From: a virus
Taxonomy: Duplodnaviria; Heunggongvirae; Uroviricota; Caudoviricetes
Length of the DNA: 14,316 bases
Virus record (IMG/VR): IMGVR_UViG_2547132279_000010
Reading direction: 5' to 3' (one strand)
Shown here: one piece after another, positions 1 to 1,949 of the stretch
Position numbering within the stretch: the stretch's first letter is position 1
How the letters are laid out: each line of letters starts with the position of its first letter
Notes under the pieces: generated by a model
Database searches by the model: none
The model's input: the letters and a program-made list of their open reading frames with translations, nothing else
What the model was told of the DNA's origin: nothing
Program-made: the position numbers and the translations under genes

Positions 1-918
1 TCAAGTAATATTGGCCACGGTTTTACAGTAAAAATGGTATCTGTTCTCTGACTCTTCCGGCGTCAGCCCACCGTTATAATGGTGAGGTCTGACGCTGTTG
101 TAGTAGTTCAATATGTAATCATTAATTTGCTGCCGGGCCTCGTCCTTGCCTGCGTAACCATTCGTTGGCACCCATTCTGTTTTCAGACTGCGGAAGAAGC
201 GTTCCATGGGGCTGTTATCCCAGCAGTTTCCCCGCCGACTGACGCTTTGATTTATTCTGCAACGCCAGAGAAGTTGTTGATATTTAAGGCCTGTATACTG
301 GCTTCCCTGGTCGCTATGGAACACGACATCCCGGGGTTGGCCACGCGTCTCATAGGCCATCCGCAGGGCACTGCTTATCAGTGCGGTATCGGCATGCGCT
401 GACAGACTCCAGCCGATAACCCTGCGGGCAAAAAGATCCATAACAACCGCCAGATAGCACCAGCGATTTCCTGCCCAGAGATACGTAATATCTCCACACC
501 ATACCCGGTCTGGCTCCGGTACTGCGAACTGACGCTCAAGCAGATTCGGCAGGCTGGTATGCTCCTGACGGGCATTTTTATACTGATGTTTTCCGGGCTG
601 ACAACTGCTCAGGTTCAGATATTTCATCAGACGTCCGGCACGGTAACGGCTCATCGGGACGCCGTTTTGAGTCAGCATTTCAGCCAGAGTGCGCGCGCCC
701 GCAGAGCCCCGACTTTGGTTCCACGCCCGGCGTATTTCGCTGCACAACCTGACTCGTGCCGGATTAACCGTATCGCGTCGTTTTCGCCAGTACCGGTAAC
801 TGCTGCGGTGTATTTCCAGAGCAGAACACAGGCTGACAACCGTGTGGCTGTCACTTAGTCTGGCGGCTATCGTGAACCGTTCAGCGAGTCGGACATTAAG
901 AGCGCGGTAGCCTTTTTT
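1..918 (-). CDS. IS3-family transposase OrfB (DDE catalytic domain), expressed as an OrfAB fusion by programmed -1 frameshift
   Basis: The ORF contains the DDE-transposase motifs [17 protein letters not shown] and [15 protein letters not shown] translated the orfB frame by hand upstream of its first ATG (747) through to about 841 and found it open ([24 protein letters not shown]...). The frame offset matches a -1 slip at A_AAA_AAG. The TGA stop occupies window positions 3..1. Confidence 0.85.
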
Positions 919-1178
919 AATATCGTATTTTGTTCCTCCAGACGGCGAACTTGCTTTTCCAGCTCGCGGATACGTTGCTGGTCTGGAGTAATGGGTGTGG
1001 CAGAGGGCGTAATACCCTGGCGCTCTCGCCTGAGCTGGCGTACCCAGCTCTCAAGCGTGGTTGAACCGACATTCATCGCTTCACTGGCCTGTCGATATGA
1101 GTAGCCCTTATCAACAATCAGCTGTGCACATTCCAGCCTGAACTCAGGGGTGAAGGTTCGTTTGGTTTTCTTGTTCAT
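867..1178 (-). CDS. IS3-family transposase OrfA (HTH / leucine-zipper DNA-binding subunit)
   Basis: Translation [28 protein letters not shown]...[18 protein letters not shown] resembles IS911 OrfA as I remember it. An AGGTGA ribosome-binding site sits 7 nt upstream of the ATG at 1178. The ORF track starts this ORF at an upstream in-frame ATG (1214) that lies in the terminal inverted repeat and is less likely to be the real start. Confidence 0.85.
912..918 (-). promoter_or_regulatory. Programmed -1 ribosomal frameshift site A_AAA_AAG (orfA to orfB)
   Basis: The minus strand reads TTA AAA AAG GCT (L K K A) in the orfA frame. The + strand shows a run of six T at 913-918. This is the typical IS3/IS911 slippery motif, and the downstream frame arithmetic fits orfB. 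Confidence 0.7.
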
Positions 1179-1250
1179 TAAGTCACCTGTTTTGTGTTGT
1201 GGTGAGAATATCACCTTTCATCAGGTGGCCAAATTTAGTGTGCCACTACA

Positions 1251-1949
1251 ACCACCCTGTGGGTTTATAAGGGAAGCGGTGACCCTTATGCGAATCCGCT
1301 TTCAGACGTTGACTGGTCGCGTCTGGCAAAAGTTAAAGACCTGACGCCCGGCGAACTGACCGCTGAGTCCTATGACGACAGCTATCTCGATGATGAAGAT
1401 GCAGACTGGACTGCGACCGGGCAGGGGCAGAAATCTGCCGGAGATACCAGCTTCACGCTGGCGTGGATGCCCGGAGAGCAGGGGCAGCAGGCGCTGCTGG
1501 CGTGGTTTAATGAAGGGGATACCCGAGCCTATAAAATCCGCTTCCCGAACGGCACGGTCGATGTGTTCCGCGGCTGGGTCAGCAGTATCGGTAAGGCGGT
1601 GACGGCGAAGGAAGTGATCACCCGCACGGTGAAAGTCACCAACGTGGGCCGTCCGTCGATGGCAGAAGATCGCAGCACGGTGACGGCGACAACCGGCATG
1701 ACTGTGACGCCTGCCAGCACCTCGGTGGTGAAAGGGCAGAGCACCACGCTGACCGTGGCATTCCAGCCGGAAGGCGCAACCGACAAGAGCTTCCGTGCGG
1801 TGTCTGCGGATAAAACAAAAGCCACCGTGTCGGTCAGTGGTATGACCATCACCGTGAAAGGTGTTGCTGCAGGCAAGGTCAACATTCCGGTCGTATCCGG
1901 TAATGGTGAACTTGCTGCGGTTGCAGAAATCACCGTCACCGCCAGTTAA
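1251..1949 (+). pseudogene. V: Major tail protein V, 5'-truncated by the IS insertion (lacks the first ~14 codons and its start)
   Basis: The in-frame translation from 1251 reads [43 protein letters not shown]...[39 protein letters not shown]...[18 protein letters not shown], which matches lambda gpV from residue ~15 to the C-terminal Ig-like domain. An in-frame TAG at 1236-1238 inside the IS closes the frame upstream. The first in-frame ATG is at 1467. Confidence 0.85.

Follow-up and report, generated by a model that had tools for sequence, protein, structure and literature searches.

The DNA analysed here (hereafter the window, 14,316 nt in all) begins inside an insertion sequence (IS), continues into a fragment of the major tail tube gene V and runs on through a lambda-like series of tail genes. 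The question raised by this locus is what the IS did to the prophage that carries it. A first-pass annotation, made from the letters of the window, had proposed a recent and simple IS insertion that split V after its codon 14 in an otherwise complete prophage, so that gene U and the initial 42 nt of V would lie beyond the IS next to a 3-4 bp target-site duplication. The window was found to be identical to positions 7206-21521 of L007, the contig AELC01000016.1 (assembly GCA_000166575.2) of the ETEC strain TW10828, which was isolated in Guinea-Bissau in 1996 (PMC4309559), and the sequence to the left of the IS could therefore be inspected in this contig, the only one on record to encode the tape-measure protein of the window.

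The IS occupied positions 1-1250 on the minus strand. Its full length was 1,258 bp, its first 8 nt (TGTAGTGG) being located at 7198-7205 of L007, outside the window, so that positions 1-18 contained the inner 18 nt of the left terminal inverted repeat (TGTAGTGG followed by TCAAGTAATATTGGCCAC). The right terminus, ending in ...GTGCCACTACA, stopped at 1250, which placed the IS/V junction at 1250/1251, and it was the inverted repeat of the left terminus (TGTAGTGG...TTGGCCAC). The right terminal inverted repeat (1225-1250, reverse complement TGTAGTGGCACACTAAATTTGGCCAC) was imperfectly matched over about 26 bp to the left one (TGTAGTGGTCAAGTAATATTGGCCAC vs TGTAGTGGCACACTAAATTTGGCCAC) and the element had TG...CA ends. 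On the minus strand, orfA (867-1178, 103 aa, HTH_Tnp_1 domain) started with an ATG at 1176-1178 that had AGGTGA ahead of it, and overlapped the orfB frame (1-915), whose DDE/rve catalytic part (1-747) contained the domains rve (Pfam match, E=6e-27), rve_3 and HTH_21 and matched the NCBIfam model NF033516, 'IS3 family transposase', with 268.7 bits (cut-off 160). A heptamer A AAA AAG, read from the sequence at 912-918, joins the two frames by a -1 frameshift into a fused OrfAB of 392 aa (1-1178), and identical copies of the IS carry the PGAP label 'programmed frameshift' with the same length of 392 aa. The only PGAP name for the product was 'IS3 family transposase' (WP_085968792.1). The terminal repeat had no match in a full-text literature search, and the comparison with the phage collection gave two partial and uninformative matches only, so that no ISfinder name was assigned.

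Together with the 3-bp target duplications of its simple insertions elsewhere, described below, these data show that the element is a typical IS3-family IS in which every defining feature is present; the first-pass annotation, too, had called it an IS3-family element, of about 1.25 kb and with a minus-strand transposase. It resembles the IS3/IS911-like, copy-out-paste-in elements in length, TG...CA termini, orfA/orfB frameshift and the 3-bp duplications of its other copies; unlike them, the copy at this locus has mismatched flanks.

Immediately after the IS, the V frame was open on the plus strand from 1251 to a stop codon at 1947-1949. This 5'-truncated gene (1251-1949) comprised lambda codons 15-246 and the stop codon, and its product aligned without gaps to residues 15-246 of lambda gpV (NC_001416) with four substitutions (228/232 aa identical, or 98%; 97% identity at the nucleotide level), which agreed with the place of resumption given in the first-pass annotation. 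The domains of a gpV-type protein were found, Phage_TTP_12 with E=1.4e-70 and the C-terminal Ig-like Big_2 with E=1.1e-19, as in lambda gpV; unlike lambda gpV, the fragment had neither residues 1-14 nor a start signal or ribosome-binding site, and the reading frame was thus incomplete. An uninterrupted allele, with which a comparison had been advised, was present in E. coli ST2350: the fragment and the last 699 nt of this intact 246-aa gene had 100% identity at the DNA level, and the 5' end of the gene reads ATG CCT GTA ... GGT GCC GGG and, from the point where homology with the window begins, ACC ACC CTG.

Full-length gpV cannot be made from this locus, because the start codon, the ribosome-binding site and codons 1-14 are lost, an in-frame TAG lies inside the IS just upstream of the fragment and the sole start-like codon is a CTG at 1257 that has no Shine-Dalgarno sequence; no ATG, GTG or TTG start was found in the V frame before codon 87. 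PGAP calls positions 1257-1949 an intact 'phage tail protein' of 230 aa (WP_029380384.1) from the CTG start; this should rather be annotated as a pseudogene. An internal restart at the ATG at 1467 had also been suggested. The corresponding ORF of 160 aa does exist, but it covers only residues 87-246 of V. In gpV, the O- and E-loops correspond to residues 24-38 and 50-78, respectively, and the N-terminal loop, flexible in solution, becomes ordered in the assembled tube and adds to the contacts between rings (PMC10721106). The restart product would contain none of these three loops and was rejected as a source of working tube protein.

The possibility of an outward promoter in the IS, also raised in the first-pass annotation, found no backing in a scan of positions 1-2400 on both strands, which yielded 0 sigma-70-like sites. 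In IS911 and IS2, the circle junction promoter of IS3-family elements reads inward from the end that corresponds to the V-side end of this copy, so that an outward promoter directed towards V is not expected. Transcription of the V fragment and the tail genes is conceivable only as read-through from the rspA promoter, crossing the IS in antisense.

The sequence to the left of the IS in the contig of TW10828 was not that of a phage. The left IS end, beyond the window, adjoined codon 75 of the chromosomal gene rspA (MKIVKAEVF...FFYKGAY), where gene U and the 42 nt of V had been anticipated; neither U nor a 5' fragment of V nor other phage DNA was present directly left of the IS in this contig. 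The rspA fragment was 100% identical to the 5' end of rspA in strain MS1665 and was preceded in L007 by ynfA, ynfB, speG and ynfC. Native rspA reads ...GCTTAC followed by TGGCGTCGC (TGGCGT...), whereas in TW10828 ...GCTTAC is followed by TGTAGTGGTCAAG. The first-pass annotation was thus right in that V had been cut from its start codon, ribosome-binding site and first 14 codons; these have not been displaced to the far side of the IS, however, but are absent from the locus. As a separate observation, ynfA, just upstream of the rspA fragment, was frameshifted in TW10828 and its relatives (L007 6443-6767; L001 16964-17289) and is called a pseudogene by PGAP.

No target-site duplication was found at the IS copy between rspA' and 'V, whose flanks were TAC (left) and ACC (right), in place of the predicted duplication of 3-4 bp. 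As a positive control, we used the same 1,258-bp IS, with identical ends, in three other lambdoid prophages. It was flanked by GGC/GGC in gpU of strain 7_33_46A, by GCG/GCG in the head-tail joining gene (FII) of MS1665 and by TAT/TAT in J of AH01. Since these controls had perfect 3-bp duplications, the mismatched flanks of the window copy indicate that it bears the flanks of two different target sites. The copies in MS1665 (L005) and 7_33_46A (L004) were 100% identical to that of the window.

These control insertions also showed that the 1,258-bp IS is a frequent inactivator of lambdoid late genes, having inserted independently in gpU (L004 2720-5200; at least nine genomes), in the head-tail joining gene (L005 5993-7250) and in J (L006 15854-17111). 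The transposase was antisense to the late operon in all the late-gene copies; this apparent orientation bias was discarded as an ascertainment artefact, because the search joins same-strand pieces only.

Both junctions were searched for in a sample of 5,426 complete E. coli genomes. The IS/'V junction was found at 100% identity over 500 bp in exactly three of them, and the rspA'/IS junction, also at 100%, in the same three: O114:H49 90-9280 and ETEC-2264, both from Bangladesh, and L3_CS7_E2980. In these closed genomes the right flank consisted of stf, tfaQ, pinQ, ydfK, ynfT and a 5'-truncated ydfJ, which is the right end of Qin; the attachment of the locus to the Qin site (tfaQ-pinQ-ydfK right end and ydfJ) was thus seen in the three closed relatives, the window itself stopping in stf. 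All three carried an IS30 nested in the IS at the position corresponding to 907-908 of the window, and at least two additional copies of the 1,258-bp IS were present in their genomes. As the nested IS30 makes the rspA'-IS-'V copy unique in the relatives, a collapse of repeats is excluded there. TW10828, without IS30, represents an earlier state than the closed relatives.

Isolates from Guinea-Bissau (1996) and from Bangladesh have the deletion described below in common, and it is thus fixed in a lineage. It predates the IS30 insertion and is young in evolutionary terms.

The IS30 itself was 1,221 bp long, with a 2-bp GT duplication, and was located at IS position 915-916, 4 nt from the frameshift heptamer. 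Two unrelated contexts had it at the identical dinucleotide of the IS, once in each orientation (L001 18636-19856; L004 3636-4856), namely the rspA'/'V copy of 90-9280, ETEC-2264 and E2980 and the gpU copy of 7_33_46A and similar strains. This suggests either a hot spot for IS30 within the IS or repeated insertions that were independent of each other.

In order to establish how much had been lost, MS1665, in which a full-length lambdoid prophage occupies this Qin site, was used as the reference. The genes there follow one another as ynfA, rspA, rspB, int, xis, exo, dicB/dicA/dicC, relBE, hokD, a Q-like antiterminator, lysis genes, nohA, terminase, portal, protease, D, E, FI, FII, Z, U, V, G, T, H ... 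ydfJ'. The interval missing from the window locus, which begins with rspA codon 76 and ends with V codon 14, measured 33,638 bp on MS1665 once its own IS was subtracted. Absent from the locus were the 3' end of rspA, rspB, int, xis, the regulatory, replication, lysis, terminase and head genes, Z, U and codons 1-14 of V. The rspA' and 'V pieces keep their native relative orientation, which indicates a deletion and not an inversion.

The host segment that starts at rspA codon 77 and stops where rspB ends (L009 8710-10726) was missing from 350 of the 5,426 complete genomes, and loss of rspAB beside the Qin attachment site appears to be recurrent. With 350 genomes lacking rspB, an rspB count alone was unsuited as a test for the loss, and a composite query was used instead, made of ynfD-rspA', V' and a 400-nt piece of rspB. 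The three closed relatives ranked first with this query, with three places per chromosome; V' alone gave an equal count in 90-9280 and ETEC-2264, which indicates that rspB is not elsewhere on the chromosome. At least two further V homologues are present in the closed relatives.

What remains is a remnant of about 16-17 kb with the order V'-G-T-H-M-L-K-I-J-lom-stf, to which tfa and pin are added in the closed relatives. Lambda biology and the gene order in the relatives suggest that its tail genes are transcriptionally orphaned, the Q antiterminator and the late promoter having been lost. With U, Z, the head and lysis genes, the Q antiterminator and probably the late promoter region missing, the tail genes would be orphaned whatever the state of V, and the remnant cannot make either tails or phage. 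The tail module had been considered probably non-functional for want of gpV but otherwise intact; the loss of gpV stands, but about 34 kb including U, Z, head and lysis genes are deleted as well. Likewise, what had been taken for an early step of prophage domestication is a late stage of decay, in which most of the prophage, together with rspA and rspB, is gone.

Taken together, the left flank, the mismatched ends and the missing interval make it very probable that the IS marks the place of an IS-associated deletion, about 34 kb in size, which left a tail-only prophage remnant, and that it did not simply disrupt a gene. The starting point would have been a lambdoid prophage at the Qin site, between rspB and ydfJ, in an ETEC lineage. 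Most likely, the multicopy IS then inserted twice in the same orientation, in rspA and in V, and the two copies recombined in a RecA-dependent manner into a single IS with mismatched flanks, a step we infer from the end product. The outcome is that about 34 kb are gone and that rspA codon 75 is joined, via the IS, to V codon 15. One intact IS does join two formerly distant sites with no duplication. The two intermediate junctions expected from this route, V5'-IS and IS-rspA3', were searched for as synthetic queries, and neither had a full-length place in the 5,426 complete genomes. All the IS copies are identical, and a hybrid IS would accordingly be unrecognisable.

The same end structure, that is one IS, no duplication and one original flank, is expected from a one-step adjacent deletion, in which a single IS in V or in rspA would have removed the 34 kb through transposase breaks, perhaps with a contribution of IEE. 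According to PMC9943667, citing Kusumoto et al. 2011, IEE acts with IS3-family elements to produce IS-adjacent deletions of between a few nt and more than 40 kb, and IEE is present in ETEC. The failure to find a two-copy intermediate among the 5,426 genomes also fits this route, but a single-copy intermediate was not found either, so that the two routes are inseparable on this evidence. On the other hand, the IS is multicopy in the closed relatives, which means that substrates for homologous recombination exist. We therefore modestly favour homologous recombination between two copies, and regard the one-step deletion as possible but rather unlikely.

The remaining explanations fared much worse. 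If the segment had been moved by an inversion or a translocation between IS copies, it should sit elsewhere in the genome, and TW10828 is known only as a draft in which such a place might be overlooked; nevertheless, the native relative orientation of rspA' and 'V is unlike that left by an inversion, the rspB probe added no place beyond the three V-homologous places in the closed relatives and the reciprocal junctions were absent from the 5,426 genomes, all of which renders this very improbable. The simple insertion into V has in its favour a clean V-side junction exactly at codon 15 and the fact that the same IS inserts simply in lambdoid late genes elsewhere, but it can hardly be maintained when rspA' lies left of the IS in the source contig as well as in three closed genomes, no second half of V and no target duplication accompany the IS and the V5'-IS junction is nowhere among the 5,426 genomes. 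A chimeric join of rspA'-IS to IS-'V through a collapsed IS repeat, which had been named as an alternative, would suit a 2010-era draft with a multicopy 1.26-kb repeat inside the contig and a contig end in the repeat-prone stf, but is scarcely credible, as support for the join comes from three independently closed genomes with both junctions 100% identical and with an IS copy made unique by IS30.

Downstream of V, the deletion left a series of plus-strand tail genes. The tail assembly chaperones G (1965-2387) and G-T (1965-2803, the T frame extending to 2803) were associated with a slippery GGGAAAG at 2363. They were followed by the intact genes H (2796-5375), M (5372-5701), L (5701-6399), K (6405-7148), I (7145-7717), J (7778-11257) and lom (11325-11924), and by the side tail fibre gene stf (11989-14316), which is open but incomplete, as the contig stops 2 nt past the window. 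The genes G, T, H, M, L, K, I, J and lom were of normal length with open reading frames, and the earlier description of this part as open was borne out, for stf up to the contig end. Over the 9.9 kb shared with 90-9280 (L001), the window had 10 differing sites, located from 907 to about 10,790, seven synonymous and three non-synonymous. An analysis of selection on the tail ORFs was abandoned, 10 differences being too few for inference; with only these sites differing, intact tail ORFs are expected by chance and are uninformative on selection.

TW10828 and the three closed relatives were 99.9% identical up to about 10,790. Beyond this point the C-terminal region of J could not be aligned, and lom/stf were only 91% identical (window about 10790-13470, up to the N-terminal part of stf, vs L001 29740-32441). 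The host-range module, consisting of the J C-terminus, lom and stf, was thus swapped by recombination after the deletion, this order being indicated by junctions that are identical while the J C-terminus, lom and stf differ. One might go further and regard the tail-only cassette as a non-inert recombination reservoir that is retained because it exchanges receptor-binding modules, as donor or recipient, with co-resident or infecting lambdoid phages and is maybe transcribed from the rspA promoter, but we hold this to be quite doubtful.

The site, together with stf, tfaQ, pinQ, ydfK and ydfJ' in the closed relatives, is that of Qin (Kim) and of full-length lambdoid prophages at rspB/ydfJ such as that of MS1665. 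The Qin of K-12 keeps the left arm (dicB, relBE, cold-shock and lysis genes, nohA) and has lost head and tail genes. In contrast to K-12 Qin, the remnant described here keeps the tail arm only, and its deletion reaches the host genes rspA and rspB. With respect to the F-type (lambda-like, flexible) tailocins, there is a likeness in the lambda-like tail gene cluster without head genes; unlike those, the remnant has no intact tube protein, terminator protein, lysis or regulatory cassette, V being truncated and U, Z and the lysis and regulator genes being absent from the locus. Nothing points to particle production from the tail remnant. IS629-associated deletions and defective prophages are well documented in E. 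coli O157 (Ooka et al. 2009; Kusumoto et al. 2011, both as cited in PMC9943667). The two cases have in common an IS3-family element that bounds a multi-kb deletion of a lambdoid prophage in a pathogenic E. coli, and they differ in the IS element involved.

The locus is therefore a fresh instance of a well-known event, ordinary IS-associated prophage decay. It teaches that an IS beside a truncated phage gene at the edge of a window should be taken for a simple insertion only once the sequence on its far side is known. This prophage has been dead for a long time, and two genes of the host, rspA and rspB, went with it, which changes the annotation of the locus and the counts of prophages in ETEC. 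The later swap of the host-range module adds a small example of the part played by defective prophages in lambdoid mosaicism.
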